DNA of 30,111 nucleotides from an uncultured Acetobacteraceae bacterium (GCA_964563665.1 CAZLYV010000003.1:9996-40106), one strand, 5' to 3'. Shown: positions 3,423 through 30,111, counted from the stretch's first letter. A program made the numbers and translations. The notes: generated by a model from the letters alone, not told the origin.

Positions 3423-4105
3423 CCCTTCGCCTTGCCGGCGAGCCCGTCGTACAGGCCAAGCATCCGGCCACGCCAGGTATGGATCGAATCGTCGTCGGCA
3501 AGCAGCGTGAACGGGCTCGTGCAGCGCGCCCACTGGAAGCCGCCGAAGACGGCGTAATCGGCGTAGAGCGGCCGCACACCGCCGACGAAGGGCTGCACCT
3601 CGAGCGTTGCGCGGAGCGGTTGCAGGCTCTGGCGGAAGGCGGCGACCCGCTGCTCGCGATCCGCCTGGACGGCTTCGAGCGCGGCGCCGAAGCGCTCTTC
3701 GCGCGACTTGCGGAAATACTCGCGGTCGTCGGGGTGAGCGTGGGCGAATACGTCGGCGATGATAAGCCGTGCGATGCCCGCGTGCACCGTTGCGTCGCTC
3801 CAGTTGCCGAGAAAGCGCGCCATTGCGCGCCCGCCGGGACCGCCAAACAGCGACGGGCGATCGGGATAAGTCTCCTCGAGGTAATTGGCGATCGTCCAGG
3901 AGTCGAAAATGCGATGTTCGCCATCGACCAGCACCGGCACGCGACCCTGCCCGGTGAAGGCGATCGCCGCTTTGTCGGTGAAGTGCCAGGGTATCGATTC
4001 GTAGGCGAGCCCCTTGTGGGCGAGCGCCATCTTGATGCGCCAACAATTGGGGCTGTAGCGCCGGTCGTCTTCCGCACCGGCAAGGTCGTAAAGCTTGATC
4101 GCCAT
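3410..4105 (-). CDS. Glutathione S-transferase, LigE / beta-aryl-ether-cleaving-like subfamily
   Basis: Start ATG 4105 with a GAGGAGG RBS, 231 aa. IKLYDL, SPNCWRIKMALAHKG, RVPVLVDG, DSWTIANYLEETYPDRPSLF, DREYFRKSRE and ADY closely parallel Sphingobium LigE as I remember it. Overlaps the convergent upstream gene by 13 bp. Confidence 0.85.
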   Translation of the reverse strand: MAIKLYDLAGAEDDRRYSPNCWRIKMALAHKGLAYESIPWHFTDKAAIAFTGQGRVPVLVDGEHRIFDSWTIANYLEETYPDRPSLFGGPGGRAMARFLGNWSDATVHAGIARLIIADVFAHAHPDDREYFRKSREERFGAALEAVQADREQRVAAFRQSLQPLRATLEVQPFVGGVRPLYADYAVFGGFQWARCTSPFTLLADDDSIHTWRGRMLGLYDGLAGKAKGYPA

Positions 4106-4238
4106 CGCGCGTCGTCCTCCTCCTCGTATTGTGGAGCGGGAGATAGCGCGACCACCCGGTACAGGTCCAGCATTCGACGCAGGGCGGGCGATCAAATTTT
4201 CGCGCGCGACTTTCCGGGATGACCGACGGATACGCCGC

Positions 4239-5783
4239 CTACATCACCGCGCCGAGCTGCCAGGGCGCGAACTCGTCTTCACCGAAGCCGAGCGCCTCGC
4301 TCTTGGTCGCTTGGCCCGAGGCGGTCTTCAAGATCAACTCGAAGATGCGCTTGCCGCATTCCTCCACCGTCTCGACGCCGTCGACGATGCCGCCGCAATT
4401 CAAGTCCATGTCGTCGGTCATCCGCTGGTAAAGCGCCGTATTGGTCGCCAGCTTGAGCGAGGGGGCCGGCTTGCAGCCGAACACCGAGCCGCGCCCGGTG
4501 GTGAAGCATATGAGATTGGCGCCGCCCGCCACCTGGCCGGTCGCCGAGACGGGGTCGTAGCCCGGCGTATCCATGAAAACGAAGCCTTTCGCGGTCACCG
4601 GTTCGGCATAACCGACCACGTCCACAAGATTGGTCGAACCGGCCTTGGCGGCGGCGCCAAGCGACTTCTCGAGAATGGTCGTGATCCCGCCCGCCTTGTT
4701 GCCCGGCGAGGGGTTGTTGTCCATCGTGCCGCCGTTCCTGGCGGTGTAGTCCTCCCACCAATTCATCACCTTGACCAGCTTTTCGCCGACCTCGCGACTG
4801 ACCGCGCGGCGCGTCAGCAGGTGCTCGGCGCCGTACGTCTCGGGTGATTCCGACAGAACCACCGTGCCGCCGTGGCGCACCAGCAGGTCGGACGCGAAGC
4901 CCAGCGCCGGATTGGCCGAGATACCCGAATAACCGTCCGATCCGCCGCATTGCAGCCCGACCGTTATATGCGAGGCCGGAACCGTCTCGCGCGCCGCCTT
5001 GTTGACCTCCGGCAGAAGCTCCTTGATGCGCGCGATACCCGAGCGCACCGTCTTGGCGGTGCCGCCGGTTTCCTGAATGGTCATGGTTTGAAGTCGATCG
5101 CTCGCGGCGAGCCGCTCGGCCCGCATCAGGCCGCCGATCTGCGCCGCCTCGCAACCGAGACCGACGATCAGCACCGCGGCGAAATTCGGATGGCGGGCGT
5201 AGCCGGCGATGGTGCGGCGGAGCAGGTCCATCGCGTCGCCTTCGCTTGCCATTCCGCAGCCGGTTTTATGGGTGAGGGCCACGACGCCATCGACGTTGGG
5301 AAATTCGACGAGCGGGCCGCCTTCGCCGAACGGATTGCGGCGGAACGATTCGGCGATGTAGCGCGCAACCGTCGCCGAGCAATTGACCGACGTCAGCACG
5401 CCGATGTAATTGCGCGTCGCCACGCGGCCGTCGGCGCGCACGTACGCTTCGATCGTCGCTGGTTCGTTGGAATACGCGGTCGCCTTGGCATTTTCCCCAT
5501 AAGCGTAATCGCGCGCGAAGTTGCGGATCTCGCAGTTGTGGGTGTGTACGTGCTCGCCCGGCGCGATGTCGGCGGTGGCAAAGCCGATGATCTGGCCATA
5601 GCGCCGCACCGGCTCGTCCCTGGCGATCGGCCGGGTCGCCACCTTATGGCCCGATGGAATGTGGCGCCCCGCGGCGATGCCTTCGCCGGGGATGGCGGTT
5701 CCCGGAAGGATGTCCGTCCGCGCGACGACGACGTTATCGTCGGGATTCAAACGGATCGTCAGCTTGCTGGCCATGCTGGACAT
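4239..5783 (-). CDS. UxaA family hydrolase (altronate/galactarate dehydratase type; SAF + GD/AH domains fused)
   Basis: N-terminal SAF domain (DNVVVAR...IPSGHKVA...VRRYGQIIG...VHTHN), TSVNCSATVA, HKTGCG, GLQCGGSDGYSGISANPALG, NPSPGNKAGGITTILEKSLG and FTTGRGS. Start is 5783 or 5774; 5900 is unlikely. Confidence 0.92.
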   Translation of the reverse strand: MSSMASKLTIRLNPDDNVVVARTDILPGTAIPGEGIAAGRHIPSGHKVATRPIARDEPVRRYGQIIGFATADIAPGEHVHTHNCEIRNFARDYAYGENAKATAYSNEPATIEAYVRADGRVATRNYIGVLTSVNCSATVARYIAESFRRNPFGEGGPLVEFPNVDGVVALTHKTGCGMASEGDAMDLLRRTIAGYARHPNFAAVLIVGLGCEAAQIGGLMRAERLAASDRLQTMTIQETGGTAKTVRSGIARIKELLPEVNKAARETVPASHITVGLQCGGSDGYSGISANPALGFASDLLVRHGGTVVLSESPETYGAEHLLTRRAVSREVGEKLVKVMNWWEDYTARNGGTMDNNPSPGNKAGGITTILEKSLGAAAKAGSTNLVDVVGYAEPVTAKGFVFMDTPGYDPVSATGQVAGGANLICFTTGRGSVFGCKPAPSLKLATNTALYQRMTDDMDLNCGGIVDGVETVEECGKRIFELILKTASGQATKSEALGFGEDEFAPWQLGAVM

Positions 5784-19969: not shown

Positions 19970-20044
19970 TGGTGCCGGATGAGGGATTCGAACCCCCGAC
20001 CAACGGTTTACAAAACCGCTGCTCTACCCCTGAGCTAATCCGGC
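19970..20044 (-). tRNA. tRNA-Thr (anticodon UGU), 75 nt, CCA encoded
   Basis: Reverse complement GCCGGATTAGCTCAGGGGTAGAGCAGCGGTTTTGTAAACCGTTGGTCGGGGGTTCGAATCCCTCATCCGGCACCA folds into a cloverleaf. Anticodon loop TTTGTAA, T-loop TTCGAAT. Confidence 0.97.
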
Positions 20045-20132: not shown

Positions 20133-22547
20133 TCAGCCCAGGATCTGCTTGCGCTCGGGATCGTAGGGCGCCTTGTCGATTCGGGCGGCCGGGACGCGCT
20201 CGCCAAACGCCTCGATCTCGTAGTCGCCGTGCCCGGCCTCTTCGCTCGGGACATAGCCGAAGACAATGCTGCGGCCGATCGTGTGGCCATAGCCGCCGCT
20301 GGTCGTCATGCCCAGCACCTTGCCCGCCCGCCAGATCGCCTCGCCGCCATAGACCGACACCGGACGCTCGAGCACGAACATGCAAAGCTTGCGCCGCACA
20401 CCCTGCTCCTTGGCCCGCACGAGTGCGTCGCGGCCGATGAAATCGCCCTTCTTGAGCGCGACGCAGAACCCGAGACCGGCTTCGTAGGGCGTGTAGTCGG
20501 GGGTGATGTCGGCGCCCCAATAGAGATAACGCTTCTCGAGCCGGCAGGTCTCGATCGCCCGATAGCCGGCATCGGCGATGCCGAACTCCACGCCGGCGCG
20601 CCACAGAAGCTCGTAGACATGTGCCGCATATTCGGTTGGCGTGTGCAGCTCCCAGCCGAGCTCGCCCACATAGGTGATGCGGATCGCCAGCACGGGGGCA
20701 TAACCGATCCGGATCTCGCGCGCGCCCATGAACGGAAAGCCTTGGTTGCTGACGTCGCCGTCGGCGACCTTCTCCAACACCTTGCGCGAGAGCGGTCCGC
20801 CGATATTGATCACCGCGCGGGCCGAGGTGACGTCGCGCATGACGATCGCGCCGTCGCGCGGCAGGTGCGATTCGATCCAGTGGCCGTCGCGCACGCCAAA
20901 GCCGCTGCCGGTGACGACGTAGAAGCTGTTTTCGCCCGTGCGCGAAATCGTCAGATCGGCCTCGATTCCGCCGCGCTCGTTGCAGAGCTGGGTGTAAATG
21001 GCCGTCCCCAGCGGCCTGTCGAGGTTGTTGGCGGCGATGCGCTGCAACGCCTTGAACGCGCCCGGCCCGCCGATCTCGAACTTGGAAAACGAGCTCTGAT
21101 CGAACAGGGCCACGCGCTCGCGCACCGCCTGGTGCTCGCGCGCCACGTGGGCAAACCAGTTCGGCCGCCCCTCGAACGACGGCGCGTCCTCGGGCGCGAC
21201 GCTGGCCGGCGCGAACCAGTTGGGTCGCTCCCAGCCGAAGCGCGAGCCGAACACCGCGCCCTTTCCGGCGAGAATCGGATAAAGCGGGCTACGCCGGCCG
21301 CCGCGGCCCGAGTGCATCTCCTCGACCGGCCAATGGATGCAGTAATAGCGGTAATAGCTCTCGACCGCGCGTTCGTAGCGGTAGCGCCGGCTCATGTGGT
21401 GGTGGCCGAAGCGGCGGACATCGAAGGCCCACAGATCGAGCTCCGGCTCGCCGTGAACGATCCATTGCGCGAGCGCGCGCCCGGCGCCGCCGCTCGCCGC
21501 GATGCCGGAGGTGAACCCGCATGCGAGGTAAAAATTATCGAGCTCGGGCGCCTTGCCCATGATCGGTTCGCCATCGGGCGAGATCGGGATCGGGCCGTTG
21601 ATCAGGTTGCGGATGCCGAGCCGCTCGAGGATCGGCAGGCGCGCCGCCGCCGGCACGACGATCTGCTCGAAGCGCTCGAAGTTGGACGCCAGCAGCTCGC
21701 GCCCGAAATCGAACGACACGCCGGTGCGCCCGAACGGCACCGTGTTCGGCTCCCAGCCGCCCACCGCGAGCGCGCCGACGTCGGGCTTGAGATAGAAGCC
21801 TTTGTCGGGGTCGCGCAGGGTCGGCAGATCGCGCGGGATCTCGGGCGATTTCTCGGTCACCATGTACTGGTGCTCGACGGCGACCGCTGGCACCCGCACG
21901 CCCGCCATTTCGCCGATGCGATCGGCCCACATGCCGGCCGCGTTGACGACGATTTCGCAGGCGATTGCGCCCTGGTCGGTCAGCACGCGTGTCGCCCGGC
22001 GGTCCTTGACCTCGATGCCGATGACGCGCACGCCCTCGAGCATTTTTACGCCGCCGCCGCGCGCGCCCTTGGCGAGCGCCATGGTGAGGCTCGTCGGATC
22101 GATGTAGCCGTCGCCCGGCACGAACACCGCGCCCACGACACCGTCCGCCGACATCAGCGGGAAGATCTTCTTGGCTTCCTCGGGCGACATCGGATGGATG
22201 TCGAAGCCGAAGCTGCGCGCCGTGGTGACCGACCGCTTGAGCTCACTCCAGCGCGCCTCCGAGGAAGCGAGCCGCAAGCTTCCCACCGGGCGCCAGTCGG
22301 TCTGTTGCCCGGTTTCGTCGGCGAGCCGGCCATAGAGCTCGGCGCTGTACTGCATCAGGCGCGTCAAGTTGCGCTTGCTGCGAAGTTGGCCGACGAGACC
22401 CGCGGCGTGCCACGTCGCGCCATGGGTAAGGCCGCTTTTTTCGACCAGCACGACGTCCCGCTCGCCCTCCTTGGCGAGATGGTAGGCGATCGAACAGCCG
22501 ATTGCCCCGCCGCCGATGATGACAATTCGAGCCCGCTCAGGAATCAC
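20133..22547 (-). CDS. GcvT-family FAD-dependent oxidoreductase (dimethylglycine/sarcosine dehydrogenase-like, with folate-binding C-terminal domains)
   Basis: 804 aa. IIGGGAIGCSIAYHL Rossmann fold, TWHAAG (covalent-flavin His motif), EHQYMVTE, FGWERPNWF, DQSSFSKF, TYVGELGWELH and RLEKRY. GTG start with a GGGAG RBS. Confidence 0.93.
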   Translation of the reverse strand: MIPERARIVIIGGGAIGCSIAYHLAKEGERDVVLVEKSGLTHGATWHAAGLVGQLRSKRNLTRLMQYSAELYGRLADETGQQTDWRPVGSLRLASSEARWSELKRSVTTARSFGFDIHPMSPEEAKKIFPLMSADGVVGAVFVPGDGYIDPTSLTMALAKGARGGGVKMLEGVRVIGIEVKDRRATRVLTDQGAIACEIVVNAAGMWADRIGEMAGVRVPAVAVEHQYMVTEKSPEIPRDLPTLRDPDKGFYLKPDVGALAVGGWEPNTVPFGRTGVSFDFGRELLASNFERFEQIVVPAAARLPILERLGIRNLINGPIPISPDGEPIMGKAPELDNFYLACGFTSGIAASGGAGRALAQWIVHGEPELDLWAFDVRRFGHHHMSRRYRYERAVESYYRYYCIHWPVEEMHSGRGGRRSPLYPILAGKGAVFGSRFGWERPNWFAPASVAPEDAPSFEGRPNWFAHVAREHQAVRERVALFDQSSFSKFEIGGPGAFKALQRIAANNLDRPLGTAIYTQLCNERGGIEADLTISRTGENSFYVVTGSGFGVRDGHWIESHLPRDGAIVMRDVTSARAVINIGGPLSRKVLEKVADGDVSNQGFPFMGAREIRIGYAPVLAIRITYVGELGWELHTPTEYAAHVYELLWRAGVEFGIADAGYRAIETCRLEKRYLYWGADITPDYTPYEAGLGFCVALKKGDFIGRDALVRAKEQGVRRKLCMFVLERPVSVYGGEAIWRAGKVLGMTTSGGYGHTIGRSIVFGYVPSEEAGHGDYEIEAFGERVPAARIDKAPYDPERKQILG

Positions 22548-22586
22548 GATCCCGCTCCCGTCGTCGCCGGTTGTTGATTTTGGCGG

Positions 22587-23858
22587 TTACTCTGCGGCGT
22601 GCGCGACCGGGCTCCAGCCCCCCGCCTCGTGCAGGTACCACTCGACGAAGTGGGCGACGTTGCGCTCCTTGGTAAGCGAGTAGGGACCAGGCCGGAAGCG
22701 CGGCGAGCTGACGCCGGCCTGCTGGTTCTTGCAGATCTGCCAGTCCTGCTCCGAAGTGAGCCGCCACACCGGCAACAGGCGGTCGAGCGTGTAGTCCTTG
22801 CCCTCGACCGCGTCCTGGTGGACGAACCACATCACGCGGATATGGCACATCGCCGGGCCGACCGGCGTGATGCGCGTCGCCACCGCGTGGTCGTCGTTGG
22901 CGTGCTGCCAGAAATTGGGGAAGATCGTGATGCGGAGCGTGCCGGCGTCGCGCTCCTTGAAATCGCCCATCAGCGGCGCCACCGGCTTGCCATCGAGGCT
23001 CTGGGTGGTGAAACCCTTCATCAGCGGCGTACGGTGACAACGATAAAACGCCCCGGTCATCGCCGACGACGCGTCGCCCTCGTCGAGGCCGAGCGCGCGG
23101 AAGCGGGCGTTACTCTCGGCGATCAGCGCCTCCAATTCCGCCTGGAGCCTGGGGTTGCCATGCGCCTCGTCGCGCAGCACGTCGTAGGTCGCCTTGTTGT
23201 ATTCGGGGTGATTGGGCGGGCAGTGGTAGCACTCGCGATTGTTCTCGAAGACGAGCTTCCAGTTCGCCGGCACCTCGTAATCGATCTGGTGGGCAAGCTT
23301 GGCGCGCTCCATCCCGTGCGGCTTGAGGCGTCGCGCGATATCGCGCGCGGCGGATTCGAAATCGGGCGGGTTGTCGGCGAGCGAGAAGAAGATCAGGCCT
23401 GCAACGTTGCTGACCGGCACCGGTTGGAGCGAGAGTTCGGCGCGATCGACGCCGAACTCGGGCTTGGTGTTCATCATCAGCCGGCCATCGAGGTCATAGG
23501 TCCAGCGGTGATAGGGGCAGGCGAGGTGCGTCGAGTGGCCCTTCTCGGTATTGCAGATGCGCGAGCCGCGGTGCCGGCAGGTGTTGTGGAACGCCTTGAT
23601 ATCGCCCTTGTGGTCGCGCACGACGATGATCGAGAAGCCGCCGATCTGATAGGTGAACCAATCGCCGGGCCGGGGAATGGTGCAGGCGTGACCGGCGTAG
23701 AGCCACGCGCGTCCGAAGACGCGTTCCATGTCGATCGCGAACACGTCGGGACTGACGTAGAACGGTCCCGGTAGCGGCCGGTTCGCGTGATAGCCGCGCA
23801 CTAGAGCGGAAAAGTACTCCGAACGGGCCTTGTCGGCGGGAGCAATCGGGCTGGTCAT
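22587..23858 (-). CDS. Rieske non-heme iron oxygenase alpha subunit, quaternary-amine N-demethylase type (GbcA/Stc2-like)
   Basis: Rieske motif CRH-x17-CPYH. Mononuclear-iron region NWKLVFENNRECYHC...HPE and QDWQIC, plus the C-terminal GPYS...ERNVAHFVEWY, are characteristic of the glycine betaine/stachydrine demethylase group. Confidence 0.9.
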   Translation of the reverse strand: MTSPIAPADKARSEYFSALVRGYHANRPLPGPFYVSPDVFAIDMERVFGRAWLYAGHACTIPRPGDWFTYQIGGFSIIVVRDHKGDIKAFHNTCRHRGSRICNTEKGHSTHLACPYHRWTYDLDGRLMMNTKPEFGVDRAELSLQPVPVSNVAGLIFFSLADNPPDFESAARDIARRLKPHGMERAKLAHQIDYEVPANWKLVFENNRECYHCPPNHPEYNKATYDVLRDEAHGNPRLQAELEALIAESNARFRALGLDEGDASSAMTGAFYRCHRTPLMKGFTTQSLDGKPVAPLMGDFKERDAGTLRITIFPNFWQHANDDHAVATRITPVGPAMCHIRVMWFVHQDAVEGKDYTLDRLLPVWRLTSEQDWQICKNQQAGVSSPRFRPGPYSLTKERNVAHFVEWYLHEAGGWSPVAHAAE

Positions 23859-24046
23859 CTCTGTCGTCTCCTGGACTTCGGGAAGCGTCGCGTCGGGACG
23901 TACGATGGCGTCCGGCGCGTGCCGGGTTTATGTTTGTTTTCCGACCCTTGCGGATCGCAAGCTTTCGCCCCCGGACGGTGCTTGAGCGGGATCAATTATC
24001 ACATCGCCGGGTGCTATGGTACGCGCCGAAAACTTGGTCTTTGGCC

Positions 24047-24059
24047 TAGGGAAGACTTA
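24047..24059. promoter_or_regulatory. Possible LysR T-N11-A recognition site at the lysR start codon
   Basis: TAGGGAAGACTTA overlaps the ATG A, a typical position for LysR autoregulation. The motif has low information content. Confidence 0.3.
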
Positions 24060-24955
24060 TGGCGATTTTGCCCCGCCGTCGCCGCCTGCCGCCGCTCAAC
24101 TGGCTGCGCGCCTTCGAGAGCGCGGCCCGCCACTTGAGCTTCACCGACGCCGGCGAGGAGCTTGGCGTCACGCAGGCGGCGGTGAGCCAGCAGGTGCGGC
24201 AGCTCGAGGACTGGCTCGGCGCCCAACTGTTCAAGCGGTTGTCGCGTGGGCTGGCGTTGACCGACGCCGGGATCGCCTATCTGCCGACCGTGCGCGAAGG
24301 CATCGACCGGCTCGATATCGGAACCGAGCAAATTTTCGGCCGGCTGGGCCGCCGGCCGGTGACGCTGCGCGCAAGCGCGAGCGTGGCGGCGCTGTGGCTT
24401 GGTCCACGGCTGGTCGAGCTTCGCCGTGCGCATCCGGAGATCACGCTCCGCGTGACGACGCTGTACGCCCCGGTCGATTTCGGTCAGGACGGGGTCGATA
24501 TCGAGATTCGCTACGGCGCCGGGGCGTGGCCGGGCGTGCGCGCCTACAAGCTGTTCGATGAATCGTACTTCCCGGTGGCAAGCCAAAAATATCTGAAGAA
24601 GGGGCCGCCGCTCGCTCGGCCGGCCGATCTGCCTCGTCACCGGCTGATCCATGTGCTCGGCGAGCGCGAGGGATGGGGAAACTACTTCCAGCATGTCGGC
24701 GTCAGCGGATTGCCGCTGTCCGAGGGGCTGCAATGCGACAGCCTGATCGTGGCGCTCCAGAGCTGCATCGCCGGGGGCGGCGTGGCGCTGGCGACAGCGC
24801 CGCTCGCCGAGCCGATGCTGGGCCAAAACATGCTGATCGATGTATTCAAGACCCGCGTGAAGGCGCGGCTCGCCCACCATCTCATCGTGCCCGATGCCGG
24901 CGAACCGCCGCGCGAAATCGCCAGCGTCGTCGCATGGCTCGTCGGAAATCCTTAA
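24059..24955 (+). CDS. LysR family transcriptional regulator, GcvA/AmpR subfamily
   Basis: RLPPLNWLRAFESAARHLSFTDAGEELGVTQAAVSQQVRQLE HTH, WLGPRL and DIEIRYGAG. Divergent from the Rieske-GcvT pair. Confidence 0.93.
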   Translation: MAILPRRRRLPPLNWLRAFESAARHLSFTDAGEELGVTQAAVSQQVRQLEDWLGAQLFKRLSRGLALTDAGIAYLPTVREGIDRLDIGTEQIFGRLGRRPVTLRASASVAALWLGPRLVELRRAHPEITLRVTTLYAPVDFGQDGVDIEIRYGAGAWPGVRAYKLFDESYFPVASQKYLKKGPPLARPADLPRHRLIHVLGEREGWGNYFQHVGVSGLPLSEGLQCDSLIVALQSCIAGGGVALATAPLAEPMLGQNMLIDVFKTRVKARLAHHLIVPDAGEPPREIASVVAWLVGNP

Positions 24956-25164
24956 GCCGGGCGGAGTCGTAGCAATGGCCAGGCGCTTGACAGGAATATG
25001 CAATACGCGCTGACTCATACCTACCGCGCCGGCCGTCCGACGCGAGGAAGGCGTGGCTTAAATTTGCCGGGGATATCCGCCGCTCCTGTGGCGGAGAGTT
25101 TCAGCCGAACGCATAATGGACATCCGGCACGGATCGAGACATATCGAGGAAGGGGAGACCGTCA

Positions 25165-26217
25165 ATGACTAAACGATCGATCACATGGGTGCTCGGCGGG
25201 ATATTCGCCGCCACGAGCATGCTTGCCTTGGCCGCCGGCCTGAGCGGCGAGGCGGCGGCGCAGGGCAAGACGCGGCTTTCCGTCTACACCGCGCTCGAGA
25301 ACGACCAGCTTGGTCCATACAAGCAGGCGTTCGAGGCCGACAATCCGGATGTCGAGATCGGCTGGGTACGCGATTCGACCGGCATCATCACCGCCCGTTT
25401 TTTGGCCGAGAAGGACAATCCGCGCGCGGACATCATCTGGGGCCTCGGCGCCTCGAGCATCGCGCTGTTCGATTCGATGGGCCTTCTGCATCCCTATAGT
25501 CCGAAGGGCTCCGCCGCGCTGAAACCGGCCTTCCGCGACAGCAAGGTCCCGGCGGCATGGACGGGCATGGACGCGTGGTTGTCGGTCATCTGCTACAACA
25601 CCGTCGAGGGGCCGAAGAAGAATATCTCCAAACCGGCGGCGTGGGCCGATCTCGTGAAGTCCGAATACAAGGACCAGATCGTGATGCCCAATCCGGCCTC
25701 GTCGGGCACCGGGTATCTCACGGTCTTCGCCTGGATCCAGATCATGGGCGAGAAGGCGGCTTGGGATTACATGGACAAGCTGCACCAGAACATCGCCGTC
25801 TATACGCATTCCGGCTCCGCGCCGTGCGTGCAGTCGGCGCGCGGCGAGCGGGTGATCGGCATCGCCTTCGACATGCGGGGCGCCAGCGAGAAGAGCAAGG
25901 GCGCGCCGATCGACATCGTCGTGCCGAAGGAAGGTGCGGGCTGGGACATGGAAGCGACCGCGATCGTCAAGGGCACCAAGAACCTGGCGGCGGCGCAAAA
26001 GCTCGCCGATTTTGCGGTAAGCCTGAAAGCCTACGAAATGTACGGCAAGTACTACGCGATCGTCGGCTATCCGGGGCTCAGCCCGGCGCCGCCGAACTAC
26101 CCGCCCAATGTCGAGCCGGCGATGGTGAAGATCGACCTCGCCCAGATGGGCAAGGAGCGCGAGCGCATCCTCGCCGAGTGGTCGAAGCGCTACGACGCCA
26201 AGTCGGCGCCGAAGTGA
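25165..26217 (+). CDS. Putative 2-aminoethylphosphonate ABC transporter substrate-binding protein (PhnS2/AepX-like)
   Basis: Signal peptide followed by LSVYTALENDQL, WVRDSTGIITAR...AEKDNPRADIIWG, WTGMDAW, MPNPASSGTG, YTHSGSAPC and GWDMEATAI, which I recognise as this family. Confidence 0.82.
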   Translation: MTKRSITWVLGGIFAATSMLALAAGLSGEAAAQGKTRLSVYTALENDQLGPYKQAFEADNPDVEIGWVRDSTGIITARFLAEKDNPRADIIWGLGASSIALFDSMGLLHPYSPKGSAALKPAFRDSKVPAAWTGMDAWLSVICYNTVEGPKKNISKPAAWADLVKSEYKDQIVMPNPASSGTGYLTVFAWIQIMGEKAAWDYMDKLHQNIAVYTHSGSAPCVQSARGERVIGIAFDMRGASEKSKGAPIDIVVPKEGAGWDMEATAIVKGTKNLAAAQKLADFAVSLKAYEMYGKYYAIVGYPGLSPAPPNYPPNVEPAMVKIDLAQMGKERERILAEWSKRYDAKSAPK

Positions 26218-26246
26218 TTGGCACGAACGCGTAATGCCTGAAGGAA

Positions 26247-26282
26247 CCCGGCGTCCGTCCCCAAGCAGGGACGGGCGCTGGG
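26247..26282 (+). other. Stable intercistronic hairpin between the SBP and ATPase genes
   Basis: CCCGGCGTCCGTCCC-CAAGCA-GGGACGGGCGCTGGG forms a 15-bp stem with 2 G:U pairs and has no U-tract. Confidence 0.6.
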
Positions 26283-26292
26283 CCCGTCATTC

Positions 26293-27405
26293 ATGACCTC
26301 GGACCACAACGGCCGCGCCGTCGCCGACAATCGCGCGCCCTATCTCAAGATCCAGCATCTCACGAAGCTGTTCGGCGCGTTCGCGGCGCTCAAGGACGTC
26401 TCGTTCGAAGTCTATCTCGGCGAGTTCGTCTGCTTCCTTGGCCCTTCCGGCTGCGGAAAGACGACGCTTCTGCGGGCGATCGCCGGGCTCGACATCCAGT
26501 CGAACGGGCGGATCGAACAGGGCGGGCGCGATATTTCCGGGCTGCCGCCCTCCGAGCGCGATTTTGGCATCGTCTTCCAGTCCTACGCGCTGTTCCCGAA
26601 TCTGACCGTGTTCGCCAATGTGGCCTATGGGCTTCGTTCGCGTGGGCTGAGGGGCACGGCGATGGAGGCGCGCGTCGCCGAATTGCTGGCGCTCGTCGGC
26701 CTGCCGGAGGAGAGGAGAAAATATCCCTCCCAGCTTTCTGGTGGGCAGCAGCAGCGCGTGGCGCTTGCCCGCGCGCTCGCCACCTCGCCGGGCCTGCTTT
26801 TGCTGGATGAACCGCTGTCGGCCCTCGATGCGCGCGTGCGCATGCGGCTGCGCCACGAGGTCAAGGCGTTGCAACGCCGGCTGGGCGTGACCACGGCCAT
26901 GGTCACCCACGACCAGGAAGAGGCGCTTACCATGGCCGATCGCATCGTGGTGATGAATCACGGCGTGATCGAACAGATCGGCACGCCGTTGGAGATCTAT
27001 CGCCATCCGGCGACCCCGTTCGTCGCCGACTTCGTCGGCACGATGAATTTTCTCGAGGGCGTACTCGCGGGGCCCGGACGCGTCGGACTCGGAACGATCG
27101 AGATCGCCTGCCCGCCCTCGGATGGCCTGGCGGTCGGAACGCCGGTGCAGATCTGCTTCCGGCCGGAAGACGTCAGCGTTCGCGGCGTCGAGGCGACGAC
27201 GCCAAACGTCGTGCCGGTCGAGATCACCAGCCTCGATTTTCTCGGCTCGTTCTGCCGGGCGACCCTCAAGCCGCAGAACGACGACCGGGCGGAGTTCATC
27301 GCCGATTTCTCGATCAACCTGATGCGCGACCTCGATCTCGCCGCCGGAAAAAGGCTCCCGGTGGCGCTGCCGCCCGGGCGCATCAAGGTGTTCGCGAGGC
27401 CCTAG
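26293..27405 (+). CDS. Putative 2-aminoethylphosphonate ABC transporter ATP-binding protein (PhnT2/AepV-like)
   Basis: FVCFLGPSGCGKTTLLRAIAGLD, RDFGIVFQSYALFPNL, LSGGQQQR, LLLDEP and VTHDQEEA. Confidence 0.88.
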   Translation: MTSDHNGRAVADNRAPYLKIQHLTKLFGAFAALKDVSFEVYLGEFVCFLGPSGCGKTTLLRAIAGLDIQSNGRIEQGGRDISGLPPSERDFGIVFQSYALFPNLTVFANVAYGLRSRGLRGTAMEARVAELLALVGLPEERRKYPSQLSGGQQQRVALARALATSPGLLLLDEPLSALDARVRMRLRHEVKALQRRLGVTTAMVTHDQEEALTMADRIVVMNHGVIEQIGTPLEIYRHPATPFVADFVGTMNFLEGVLAGPGRVGLGTIEIACPPSDGLAVGTPVQICFRPEDVSVRGVEATTPNVVPVEITSLDFLGSFCRATLKPQNDDRAEFIADFSINLMRDLDLAAGKRLPVALPPGRIKVFARP

Positions 27406-27412
27406 GGCAAGC

Positions 27413-29113
27413 ATGGCGACGATCGTTGCCGAAGCTCCGATCCCGGTGCGTCGCACGCTCGACCGCGACGACTGGATCATGCGGACGTGCCTGGTGGTGC
27501 TTGCCGCCTGGCTGGTCATCGGCGTCGCGCTGCCGCTCTACACCCTGCTTTCGAAAAGTTTCGCCGATCATGGCGGGCGATTCGTCTGGTTCGCCAACTA
27601 CGTCACCTACTTCTCGAACCCGGCGCTGTTCCAGTCGGTGTGGAACAGTTTCAGCGTGTCGCTGATCGCAACCGCGATCACCATTCCGCTCGCCTTCGTC
27701 TACGCCTATGCGCTCACCCGGAGCTGCATGCCGGCGAAGGGACTGTTCCGCACGCTGGCATTGATCCCGATCCTGGCGCCTTCGCTCCTGCCGGCGATTT
27801 CATTCATCTACCTGTTCGGCAACCAGGGTCTATTGCGGGGCATCATGTTCGGCCAGCCGATTTATGGCCCGCTCGGCATCATCATGGCCGAGGTGTTCTA
27901 TTGCTTTCCGCACGCGCTGATGATCCTGGTGACCGCCCTCTCGCTCGCCGATGCGCGGCTCTACGAGGCGGCGGTTTCGCTGCGCGCCTCGCGTTTGCGG
28001 ATCTTCTTTACCGTCACCCTGCCGGGGGCGAAATACGGCCTGATTAGCGCGTCTTTCGTCATCTTCACGCTGGTGCTCACCGATTTTGGAATTCCGAAAG
28101 TGATCGGCGGAAAATTCAACGTGTTGGCGACCGACGTCTACAAACAGGTGATCGGCCAGCAAAACTTCGAGATGGGCGCGGTCGTCGGCATGGTGCTGCT
28201 GGCGCCCGCGGCGCTCGCCTTCCTCGCCGACCGTCTGGTGCAGAGGAAACAAGTGGCGCTTCTTTCGGCCCGCGCGGTGCCGCTCGAACCCCAGCCCAGC
28301 GCCCGCTTCGACTGGCTGATGTTCGCCTTCTCAGGGATCGTCGCGGCGATGATCTTCAGCGTACTTGCCGTCGCCGGTTGGGCCTCGCTGATAAAATTCT
28401 GGCCCTATGACCTGTCGTACACTTGGGCGAACTACAATTTCAACAACTTCGATTCGGCGGGCTGGTCGTCGTACTGGAACTCGATCCGGATGGCGGCGTG
28501 GACCGCGGTCGTTGGCACGGCGATCATCTTCTCGGGCGCCTACCTGGTCGAGAAATGCAAGGGCTTCGCGCTTGGCCGCGGTTTCGTGCAGCTGCTCGCC
28601 ATGCTGCCGCTGGCGGTGCCGGGGCTGGTGCTGGGGCTGGCCTACATCTTCTTCTTCAATCACCCGGCGAACCCGCTTGGATTCCTCTATGGAACGATGG
28701 CGATCCTGGTGATCAACACGGTCTCGCATTTCTACACCGTGAGCCACCTGACGTCGGTCACCGCGCTAAAGCAGCTCGATGCCGAGTTCGAGGCCGTCTC
28801 CGCCTCGCTCAAGGTGCCGTTCTACGTCACGTTCTGGAAGGTCACCGTGCCGGTGTGCCTGCCGGCGATCCTCGATATCAGCATCTACATGTTCGTCAAT
28901 GCGATGACGACAGTGTCGGCGGTGATCTTCCTCTATTCGACCGACACCAAGCTCGCCTCGGTCGCGGTGGTGAACATGGACGACGCCGGCGCGACGGCGG
29001 CCGCCGCGGCGATGGCGATGATGATCGTCTATACCTCGGCCGGCGTGCGCGCGGTCAACGCGCTGCTGACCGCCGGGCTCCGGCGCCGCACCCAGGCATG
29101 GCGCCGCCGTTAA
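27413..29113 (+). CDS. Putative 2-aminoethylphosphonate ABC transporter fused permease (PhnU2/AepW-like)
   Basis: 566 aa with two EAA loops (LYEAAVSLRAS; EFEAVSASLKV). APSLLPAISFIYLFGNQG, DFGIPKVIGG and FVNAMTTVSAVIFLY. Confidence 0.88.
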   Translation: MATIVAEAPIPVRRTLDRDDWIMRTCLVVLAAWLVIGVALPLYTLLSKSFADHGGRFVWFANYVTYFSNPALFQSVWNSFSVSLIATAITIPLAFVYAYALTRSCMPAKGLFRTLALIPILAPSLLPAISFIYLFGNQGLLRGIMFGQPIYGPLGIIMAEVFYCFPHALMILVTALSLADARLYEAAVSLRASRLRIFFTVTLPGAKYGLISASFVIFTLVLTDFGIPKVIGGKFNVLATDVYKQVIGQQNFEMGAVVGMVLLAPAALAFLADRLVQRKQVALLSARAVPLEPQPSARFDWLMFAFSGIVAAMIFSVLAVAGWASLIKFWPYDLSYTWANYNFNNFDSAGWSSYWNSIRMAAWTAVVGTAIIFSGAYLVEKCKGFALGRGFVQLLAMLPLAVPGLVLGLAYIFFFNHPANPLGFLYGTMAILVINTVSHFYTVSHLTSVTALKQLDAEFEAVSASLKVPFYVTFWKVTVPVCLPAILDISIYMFVNAMTTVSAVIFLYSTDTKLASVAVVNMDDAGATAAAAAMAMMIVYTSAGVRAVNALLTAGLRRRTQAWRRR

Positions 29114-30030
29114 CTCGCCGATTTCGCCATCCCGCGCTCAGCGTCGATGAGGCCGCTTCCCGCGCGGCGGCGTTGCCGTGCTGGTCGCGCGCGGTCGAGC
29201 CGCGGCCGCTGCCGGGCGGGATCACCAACCGAAATTTCGTCGTCGAGGACGGAGGAGCACGTTACGTCGTTCGCGTCGGCGGCGACATCCTCGTCCACGG
29301 GGTGATGCGCTTCAACGATCTCGCCGCGGCGCGGGCGGCGCACGCCGCCGGGCTGTCGCCCGCCGTGATCCACGCCGAACCCGACGCCGTGGTGTTCGCG
29401 TTCATCGAGGGCCGAACGCTGGCGCCCGCCGACGTGCGGGAGCCGGCGATGCTCGGGCGAATCCTGCCGATGGTTCGCGCCTGCCATCACGAGGTGCCGA
29501 AGCACCTGCGCGGACCGGTGCTGGCCTTCTCCGTCTTCCATGTCATCCGCGACTATGCGGCGACGCTCAAGGAGGGCGGCAGCCGCCATGCGGCCGATCT
29601 CAGCCGATGGGTGGACATCTCCGCTAGACTTTGCCGCGCGGTGGGGCCGATCGATCTCGTCTTCGGCCACAACGATCTGCTCGCCGCCAACTTCATCGAC
29701 GATGGCACACGGCTATGGTTGATCGATTGGGATTATGCCGGCTTCAACTCGCCGCTGTTCGATCTGGGCGGCCTTGCCGGGAACAACCAGCTCCCGGCCG
29801 CCCAGGAAGAATGGCTGCTCGAAAACTATTTCGCGCGGCCGGCGGACGACCGCCTGCGGCGAAGCTATGCGGCAATGAAGTGCGCGACGCTGCTGCGCGA
29901 GGCGATGTGGAGCCTCGCGGCCGAGCTCTATTCGAACATCGAGCACGACTATGTCGGCTACACCGACGGATGCCTGGGGCGCTTCGAAGCGACGTGGTCG
30001 GCCTTCGCGCGCGATTGGAGCGCACCGTGA
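29098..30030 (+). CDS. Choline/ethanolamine kinase-like phosphotransferase (APH superfamily)
   Basis: GGITNRNF, Brenner motif GHNDLLAANF, and LIDWDYAG. The last in-frame ATG before the conserved core is 29098, overlapping the permease stop by 16 nt (310 aa). The start position is uncertain. Confidence 0.85.
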   Translation: MAPPLTRRFRHPALSVDEAASRAAALPCWSRAVEPRPLPGGITNRNFVVEDGGARYVVRVGGDILVHGVMRFNDLAAARAAHAAGLSPAVIHAEPDAVVFAFIEGRTLAPADVREPAMLGRILPMVRACHHEVPKHLRGPVLAFSVFHVIRDYAATLKEGGSRHAADLSRWVDISARLCRAVGPIDLVFGHNDLLAANFIDDGTRLWLIDWDYAGFNSPLFDLGGLAGNNQLPAAQEEWLLENYFARPADDRLRRSYAAMKCATLLREAMWSLAAELYSNIEHDYVGYTDGCLGRFEATWSAFARDWSAP

Positions 30031-30054
30031 TTCAAATGTGGCACTCTCATCGTT

Positions 30055-30111
30055 CCACCCCCTCCCCGGCGACGCATGCGTCGCCGCCTCCCCCGTCGAA
30101 AAGGGGGAGGC
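30055..30111. repeat. REP-like palindromic element, possibly truncated by the window end
   Basis: C-rich leader, a perfect 18-bp palindrome GGCGACGCATGCGTCGCC (30068-85), then GCCTCCCCC-N8-GGGGGAGGC (30086-30111). Architecture parallels the element at 14975-15061. Confidence 0.7.

Follow-up and report, generated by a model that had tools for sequence, protein, structure and literature searches.

We analysed a stretch of 30,111 nucleotides, referred to below as the window, from the genome of an uncultured Acetobacteraceae bacterium (a metagenome-assembled genome of 404 contigs and 2.77 Mb, fragmented and 92% complete; the GC content of the window is ~64%). The right-hand part of the window, between positions 20133 and 30030, carries: i) an operon encoding a Rieske-type oxygenase and a flavoprotein with a GcvT domain that resembles dimethylglycine dehydrogenase (DMGDH); ii) a transporter of the type associated with 2-aminoethylphosphonate (AEP); iii) a choline-kinase-like gene; and iv) a gene for a LysR regulator. 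On balance we consider it probable, with moderate confidence, that this locus acts as one unit that imports N-methylated 2-aminoethyl-phosph(on)ates and removes their methyl groups oxidatively and stepwise, with phosphonates as the main cargo and with the kinase feeding in free amino alcohols. The genomic support for such a pathway is good. The stepwise demethylation route has no published description that a literature search could find, nor did the search yield a description of AEP clusters that contain a Rieske, a GcvT-type or a kinase gene. What the present analysis contributes is the link of the demethylase genes with an AepXVW-type importer and the conservation of that link throughout a bacterial family.

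Linkage of the demethylase genes with the transporter and with phn genes

Domains were assigned by scanning the encoded proteins with Pfam and NCBIfam models against the cut-offs of the models, and the seven genes that a sequence-only reading of the window had named were all recovered in place. The three subunits of the importer are encoded on the plus strand and consist of a periplasmic binding protein (SBP) of the PhnS2/AepX type with a signal peptide (350 aa, 25165..26217), the PhnT2 ABC ATPase (370 aa, 26293..27405) and the fused double permease PhnU2 (566 aa, 27413..29113). All three score above the cut-offs of the respective models: 456.8 bits versus 392.75 for TIGR03261, 509.2 versus 457.7 for TIGR03265 and 812.3 versus 593.25 for TIGR03262. 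On the minus strand the gene for the alpha subunit of the Rieske non-haem-iron oxygenase (423 aa, 22587..23858) is located directly upstream of the gene for the GcvT flavoprotein (804 aa, 20133..22547), as it is at every homologous locus examined.

The linkage between both halves was surveyed in 50 genomes of the taxonomic family to which the window belongs, using orthologues of the Rieske protein and of the window-type SBP with an identity of at least 57%. At least 18 of these genomes, from 8 genera, have the Rieske-GcvT pair and the window-type transporter on a single contig at a distance of 0.3-14 kb (G000, G012, G016, G020-G023, G028, G030, G031, G038-G040 and G043-G047), while the remaining genomes are mostly fragmented assemblies that have the Rieske and SBP genes on separate contigs. 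Four layouts were encountered: divergent through the LysR gene (the window, G016, G020 and G012); directly divergent (G022); convergent, with SBP-ATPase-permease facing GcvT-Rieske (G021, G023 and ten g14 genomes, as derived from the spacing and strands of the matches and confirmed gene by gene in three of the ten); and spaced, at 13-14 kb (G031, G038 and G044). The five-gene module also occurs outside the family, in a genome of a different family (G215) and on metagenome contigs (L014, the P0052 locus, L159 and L160). Because the linkage survives so much rearrangement, it provides good evidence for a shared function. The sequence-only reading had joined the two halves in one pathway on the basis of a single genome, and their linkage thus turned out to be conserved across genera and arrangements.

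Two of the metagenome contigs carry additional genes. On L014 an ORF of 215 aa, unique to that contig, lies between the GcvT and permease genes. At the P0052 locus the transporter operon continues with a DAO-family gene of 382 aa (the size of PbfC/D), a class-III aminotransferase gene and an arginase-family gene, and FMO-like and PEP-mutase-family genes are found nearby.

The transporter itself is connected to AEP catabolism. SBP orthologues (60-85% identity) adjoin phnWAY, phnWX and pbfA as well as Rieske-GcvT, and five g2 genomes (G001, G003, G004, G007 and G009) as well as G049 have transporter orthologues (67-75% identical) at 3-8 kb from phnW; in G049 phnA and phnY were confirmed next to phnW. 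Together with G012, G015, G016, G282 and the loci L086 and L159, these are the instances in which a window-type transporter was found with AEP catabolic genes. The family contains two PhnS2 paralogues, of which the window type is the one near phnW; the second (53% identical and likewise above the TIGR03261 cut-off; G000 contig C193, L010 16-4057) is on no phnW contig within the family, and on C193 it is preceded by an aldehyde dehydrogenase gene that is not phnY (183 bits versus 636). The window transporter is therefore of the phn-associated, AepXVW type. In the study of Murphy et al. 2021 (PMC8316502) AepX was highly specific for AEP among four phosphonates; N-methyl forms and phosphate esters fell outside these tests, and the genomic neighbours of AepX were taken to hint at some promiscuity for related aminophosphonates.

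Co-occurrence with phnW was determined in 401 genomes sampled evenly from the class, with a threshold of E <= 1e-100 for the window-type Rieske protein. Whereas phnW is present in 75 of the 401 genomes, it accompanies the window-type Rieske gene in all 10 genomes, from 6 families, that have the latter (hypergeometric P = 3e-8; ~5e-5 when each family is counted once). Members of the kinase family were found in 37 genomes, and 26 of these contain phnW (P = 4e-13). Relatedness and lifestyle inflate these figures; their direction is clear. The association with aminophosphonates that had been proposed from the window alone is thus strengthened, by the surroundings of the transporter orthologues and by the restriction of this Rieske type to phnW-positive genomes in the sample.

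A link of this kind could also be indirect. TmpAB convert trimethyl-AEP into glycine betaine and phosphate (a reaction that PMC8316502 and PMC10590968 cite), and if TmpA and TmpB were encoded elsewhere in the genome, a Rieske-GcvT pair that acts on the resulting glycine betaine would explain why demethylases and phosphonate genes go together. We consider this highly improbable: no TauD-type or HD-domain gene occurs in ~30 loci (the genome was not searched for TmpAB), and the arguments against a GbcA and DMGDH identity that are given below hold here as well.

The statement in the sequence-only reading that the window contains no phn catabolic gene is correct for the window, but reflects the end of the contig: the right end of the window coincides with the end of contig C3, 80 bp past the stop codon of the kinase gene, so the absence is uninformative. 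The same genome does carry phnW (501 bits) and phnX (338 bits), both above the cut-offs, in an arrangement pbfA-phnX-phnW on the 4.5 kb contig C208, divergent from a LysR gene that is truncated by the contig end; phnA and phnY were searched for in this genome and not found. The nearest relatives that share the layout of the window are G015 and G016, whose kinase is 71% identical, and there phnW/A/Y/X and pbfA are located 3 kb beyond the kinase gene. The order in G016 is pbfA-phnX-phnY-phnA-phnW, LysR, peptidase S9, the convergent kinase-permease-ATPase-SBP operon, LysR and Rieske, and the five phn and pbf genes are all above their NCBIfam cut-offs. It is this synteny with G016, and nothing else, that suggests that C3 and C208 are adjacent; the end of C3 and C208 have no k-mers in common and an attempt to join them failed. 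An operon that runs on past the kinase gene was considered and is unlikely, as the kinase gene of G015 and G016 is followed by the convergent peptidase S9 gene and then by the full phn/pbf cluster; the operon therefore probably ends at the kinase.

The oxygenase, the kinase and the flavoproteins

The Rieske protein (PF00355 and PF00848; Rieske and Ring_hydroxyl_A domains) has an intact cluster motif (CxH-x17-CxxH; C94-H96 and C114-H117) and an intact mononuclear-iron site (ExxHxxxxH; E209-x2-H212-x4-H217). It belongs to the GbcA/Stc2 family, the members of which take one methyl group off quaternary ammonium compounds, and scores ~315 bits to both Stc2 (3vca) and 3n0q. The flavoprotein (DAO, FAO_M, GCV_T and GCV_T_C domains) has an intact GxGxxG motif and an intact TWHAAG motif containing the flavinylation histidine (His47). 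Flavoproteins of the DMGDH type act on tertiary and secondary N-methyl amines, which they oxidise, passing the one-carbon (C1) unit to tetrahydrofolate (THF).

The kinase gene (310 aa, 29098..30030, plus strand) encodes a protein with a choline-kinase/APH fold, of a family that we denote K1. Its true start is the ATG at 29098, so that it overlaps the stop of the permease gene by 16 nt and is translationally coupled to it. The protein scores 54.7 bits to PF01633 (cut-off 29) and has the Brenner motif HxDxxxxN (HNDLLAAN at 191) and the motif D-x-[DE]-Y (DWDY at 213). The family is large and well conserved, with at least 542 related stretches in a scan of genome contigs. Neighbourhoods were counted for the best 80 of these loci, which are 55-70% identical and stem from several phyla. 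In at least 55 of the 80 the kinase gene is directly followed by a gene for a DMGDH-like flavoprotein, GcvT1, that is ~50% identical to the window GcvT; a second one, GcvT2 (~60% identical to the window GcvT), and a second kinase (~30% identical) often come next. The usual upstream set, exemplified by the Kiloniella locus L134, comprises genes for a DeoR regulator, an OpuAC-type binding protein, a ProV-type ATPase and a ChoW-type permease. At the ProU-type kinase-GcvT clusters of L062 and L064 a distant Rieske oxygenase (27-28% identical to that of the window) is encoded ~5-6 kb upstream of the kinase gene (~3700-4720), and it may carry out the step on the quaternary amine there.

In the window the kinase gene adjoins the permease gene, not a GcvT1 gene, and the contig ends behind it; in the relatives G020, G012 and L159 the kinase-GcvT pairing is present. 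The kinase-GcvT1 pair has been recruited into aminophosphonate islands several times. The order is SBP-ATPase-permease-kinase-GcvT1 in G020 and G012, and SBP-ATPase-permease-PhnW-PhnX with kinase-GcvT1 at a distance of 2.8 kb in L086; in G367 the kinase gene is beside phnW-pbfA and a GcvT gene is found within a permease-phnX operon. The locus L159 combines permease-ATPase-PhnS2-PbfA-LysR with a divergent Rieske-GcvT-kinase-GcvT operon, followed by PhnY-PhnA-PhnW. The stops and starts within this Rieske-GcvT-kinase-GcvT operon overlap, and hence the oxygenase, both GcvT types and the kinase are able to form one transcription unit within a phosphonate island. A ParE/ParD toxin-antitoxin pair (L159 17070-17638) is inserted between this operon and phnY-phnA-phnW. 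A bridge between the combination of demethylases with AEP genes and that of kinases with DMGDH-like genes is formed by L159, G020 and G012 and by the position of the kinase gene at the end of the transporter operon.

The relation between these flavoproteins bears on the question whether the locus serves ordinary glycine betaine catabolism, with a divergent GbcA, a dimethylglycine dehydrogenase, and a transporter and a kinase that are mere neighbours. GbcA is indeed the top NCBIfam match of the Rieske protein, but the score to the GbcA model NF058607 is 387 bits, below the equivalog cut-off of 670, and a profile search of the genome found no GbcB equivalog. Similarly, the window GcvT reaches 587 bits against DMGDH of rat and human, but the genome encodes a paralogue on contig C163 that scores 660 bits and is the most similar to mammalian DMGDH of the three (the third, on contig C180, scores 468). 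Trees of 88 flavoproteins (FastTree) and then of 48 (IQ-TREE quick search) placed the Rieske-linked enzymes, including the window GcvT, and the GcvT2 enzymes linked to the second kinase interleaved in one clade (SH-like 97, SH-aLRT 95). The GcvT1 enzymes that are linked to the first kinase form a separate clade (support 100) with the C180 paralogue on a long branch at its base, and the C163 paralogue falls outside both clades. As the latter is both more DMGDH-like and outside the clade of the window enzyme, the window GcvT is not the best candidate of the genome for a dimethylglycine dehydrogenase; judged by its sequence, it is of the type that is found in a pair with a kinase at other loci. 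C1 and glycine genes are often under the control of GcvA-type regulators, to which the LysR protein of the locus belongs, which would fit betaine catabolism; the persistent linkage with an AepXVW-type transporter and the presence of phnW in all 10 genomes of the sample that have this Rieske type would not, and we regard this explanation as very unlikely.

The main rival to a pathway for phosphonates is one in which esters are the only substrates. The importer would then take up phosphocholine and phospho-N-methylethanolamines, i.e. phospholipid head groups, the Rieske enzyme would convert phosphocholine into phospho-dimethylethanolamine and the GcvT proteins would proceed to phosphoethanolamine, whereas the kinase would bring in free choline and methylethanolamines; the proximity of phn genes would reflect a shared transporter and regulon, not the substrate. 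The kinase family and the GcvT clade do point to phosphorylated amino alcohols: the kinase has intact choline-kinase motifs, its family is normally followed by a GcvT behind a betaine/choline-type importer, the window GcvT is in the clade of the GcvT proteins linked to the second kinase, and L159 has Rieske-GcvT-kinase-GcvT as a single operon. There is also a precedent in Eubacterium limosum, where MthK and MthB show that choline can be phosphorylated ahead of its demethylation (PMC12155760). Among solved structures, the nearest relatives of the SBP are AfuA (sugar phosphates) and P5PA (pyridoxal phosphate), both with phosphorylated ligands that are phosphate esters; a literature search on 8X1A, the closest solved structure, found nothing relevant. 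Yet the SBP is a PhnS2 equivalog with orthologues beside phnW, of a type reported to be highly AEP-specific (with esters outside that test, see above), the Rieske type is confined to phnW-positive genomes in the sample of 401, the cluster contains neither a phosphatase nor a phosphoethanolamine lyase, and the kinase is absent from most family members that have the module. Taken together, we hold a pathway for esters only to be rather unlikely.

A route that runs mainly on phosphonates, as we favour, has several observations against it too. All of its support is genomic, and lifestyle may be a partial cause of the co-occurrence with phnW. A pure AEP route leaves the kinase unaccounted for, because a phosphonate offers no hydroxyl group to a choline-kinase-type enzyme, and phn genes occur within 10 kb in 3 of the 80 best kinase loci, the family being mostly found in ProU/DeoR-type clusters. 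For a GcvT in the clade linked to the second kinase, the simplest reading would be a phosphate-ester substrate. The Rieske-GcvT pairs that are closest to that of the window (L011-13, G282 and G408) have no transporter within 10 kb; in G282 the window-type SBP gene is on the same contig, ~215 kb from the pair and 3 kb from phnW. In G022, rated 100% complete, phnW was not found despite the presence of the module. Finally, no reductase gene was found beside the Rieske gene, neither in the window nor in ~30 homologous loci. The sole Fer2-FNR protein of the genome (BenC-type, contig C26) scores 84 bits to GbcB (cut-off 500) and is a candidate reductase for the Rieske enzyme. As a reductase gene is never adjacent, we also considered the flavoprotein as electron donor, which is pure speculation; a complex prediction for the Rieske protein with residues 1-430 of the GcvT protein gave a score of 0.00, which is evidence neither way.

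Proposed route and its relation to known systems

The family chemistry of a Rieske oxygenase and two GcvT types matches the series from trimethyl via dimethyl and monomethyl to primary amine, and it is the importer, its phn neighbourhood and the joint occurrence with phnW that lead us to N-methylated 2-aminoethylphosphonates as the compounds of that series. The importer (PhnS2T2U2) would have these as most likely cargo, next to AEP. In the first step the Rieske monooxygenase, with a reductase encoded elsewhere, would hydroxylate one methyl group of the trimethylammonium form, yielding formaldehyde and the dimethyl form. In the second, the co-transcribed DMGDH-like flavoprotein ('type 2' GcvT), with a probably covalent FAD, would oxidise the tertiary amine and transfer the C1 unit to THF by means of its GcvT domain. 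The last methyl group would be stripped by the second GcvT type, which follows the kinase in relatives and for which the C180 paralogue may serve here. The sequence-only reading had assigned both later demethylations to one GcvT protein; this is unlikely, given that relatives carry two distinct types. The resulting AEP would be degraded by PhnW, PhnX and PbfA, as encoded on contig C208. The kinase probably phosphorylates choline or N-methylated ethanolamines, so that ester look-alikes would enter the same demethylases.

The phosphonate and the ester series differ solely in having a C-P or a C-O-P link. A broader version of the proposal, which we put forward tentatively and with more doubt than belief, is that the Rieske enzyme, the two DMGDH-type flavoproteins and the K1 kinase constitute a single pathway in which the 2-(methylamino)ethyl-P moiety is recognised irrespective of that link, with the kinase as entry for free amino alcohols. 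If true, one set of enzymes would break down head groups from phosphonolipids (N-methyl-AEPs) as well as from phospholipids (phosphocholine, phospho-mono- and phospho-dimethylethanolamine). The literature search found no description of DMGDH-type demethylation of phospho-bases such as phosphocholine.

With the GbcAB/Stc2 and DMGDH route the locus shares an alpha-only Rieske enzyme of the same family followed by a folate-linked flavoprotein with DAO and GcvT domains, and the division of labour between an oxygenase for the quaternary amine and a flavoprotein for the tertiary and secondary amine. It differs in that the Rieske protein remains below the GbcA cut-off, that no reductase gene is adjacent, that oxygenase and flavoprotein genes are in one operon which travels with an aminophosphonate-type importer and phn genes, and that the flavoprotein is in a clade apart from the DMGDH-like paralogue. 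Like the AepXVW system (PMC8316502), the transporter has three subunits above the cut-offs and orthologues beside phnWAY, phnWX and pbfA; unlike that system, its operon ends in a kinase gene and is tied to N-demethylases, which would imply an N-methylated cargo.

The known routes for N-methylated AEP are those of PbfB/C/D and TmpAB (PMC10590968), with which the proposed route would have in common the substrate class (mono-, di- and trimethyl-AEP) and the AEP-cluster neighbourhood. However, PbfC and PbfD oxidise the ethyl side, to phosphonoacetaldehyde and methylamine, and TmpAB act on the trimethyl form by cleavage of its C-P bond, whereas the window route would shed the methyl groups singly, as formaldehyde or methylene-THF, and leave AEP. 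A PbfB/C/D-like stand-alone PF01266 enzyme (~380-430 aa) is not encoded in the window. The Mth system (MthK with MthB/C/A; PMC12155760) resembles the locus in that a choline-kinase-type enzyme is genetically tied to N-demethylases, but it is anaerobic and corrinoid-dependent. Finally, the kinase is orthologous to those of the kinase and DMGDH-like gene pairs, but here it follows a phosphonate-type permease instead of preceding a GcvT gene, and there is a Rieske oxygenase in addition.

In soil and water, phosphorus, nitrogen and one-carbon units are commonly supplied by methylated aminophosphonates and by the head groups of phospholipids. If the proposed route is true, it would be a third pathway for methylated AEP, a stepwise one beside TmpAB (trimethyl) and PbfB/C/D (monomethyl), that delivers C1 units to folate and AEP to PhnW, and it would widen the cargo to be expected for AepXVW, a marker of marine phosphorus cycling. 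As the locus ties the widespread kinase and DMGDH-like gene pairs to phosphonate islands, it provides concrete candidate substrates for several large enzyme families.

Regulation and surroundings of the locus

The Rieske gene and the gene for the GcvA-type LysR regulator (298 aa, 24059..24955, plus strand) are separated by a divergent promoter region that was delimited by sequence inspection (23859..24058), and the regulator probably controls both divergent operons. A LysR gene with a product that is 65-75% identical is found beside the Rieske gene in G016, G020, G012, L011-13 and L159. Upstream of the SBP gene a promoter-like element was identified (24985..25020, plus strand; TTGACA-N7-TGCAAT-N2-3-GCGCTGA), which also occurs in G016 (L039) and G020 (L145), and thus in three genera; it may act as a promoter. 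A T-N11-A LysR box common to both intergenic regions was sought, and none was convincing.

Two of the transporter loci have a deviating structure. In L143 (G023:C13; 4809-7622) the permease gene directly follows the SBP gene and the ATPase gene is missing between them. In L040 and L069 (G012:C1) the transporter genes and the GcvT gene behind the kinase gene match in several pieces only, which suggests frameshifts or pseudogenes, or errors of long-read assembly.

What the remainder of the window encodes (TRAP transporters, sugar-acid enzymes and another ABC system) is unrelated to the locus. Directly downstream of the GcvT gene is a gene for tRNA-Thr(TGT) on the minus strand (19970-20044), which borders a stretch of lower GC content (0.58), the higBA mini-island of the sequence-only reading. 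At the other end, contig C3 is closed by a GC-rich palindromic repeat (30045-30111; CCCCCTCCCCGGCGACGCATGCGTCGCCGCCTCCCCC...), with similar copies at the ends of contigs C38, C237 and C54 or close to them; this is probably an interspersed element of the REP-like kind at which the assembly breaks.

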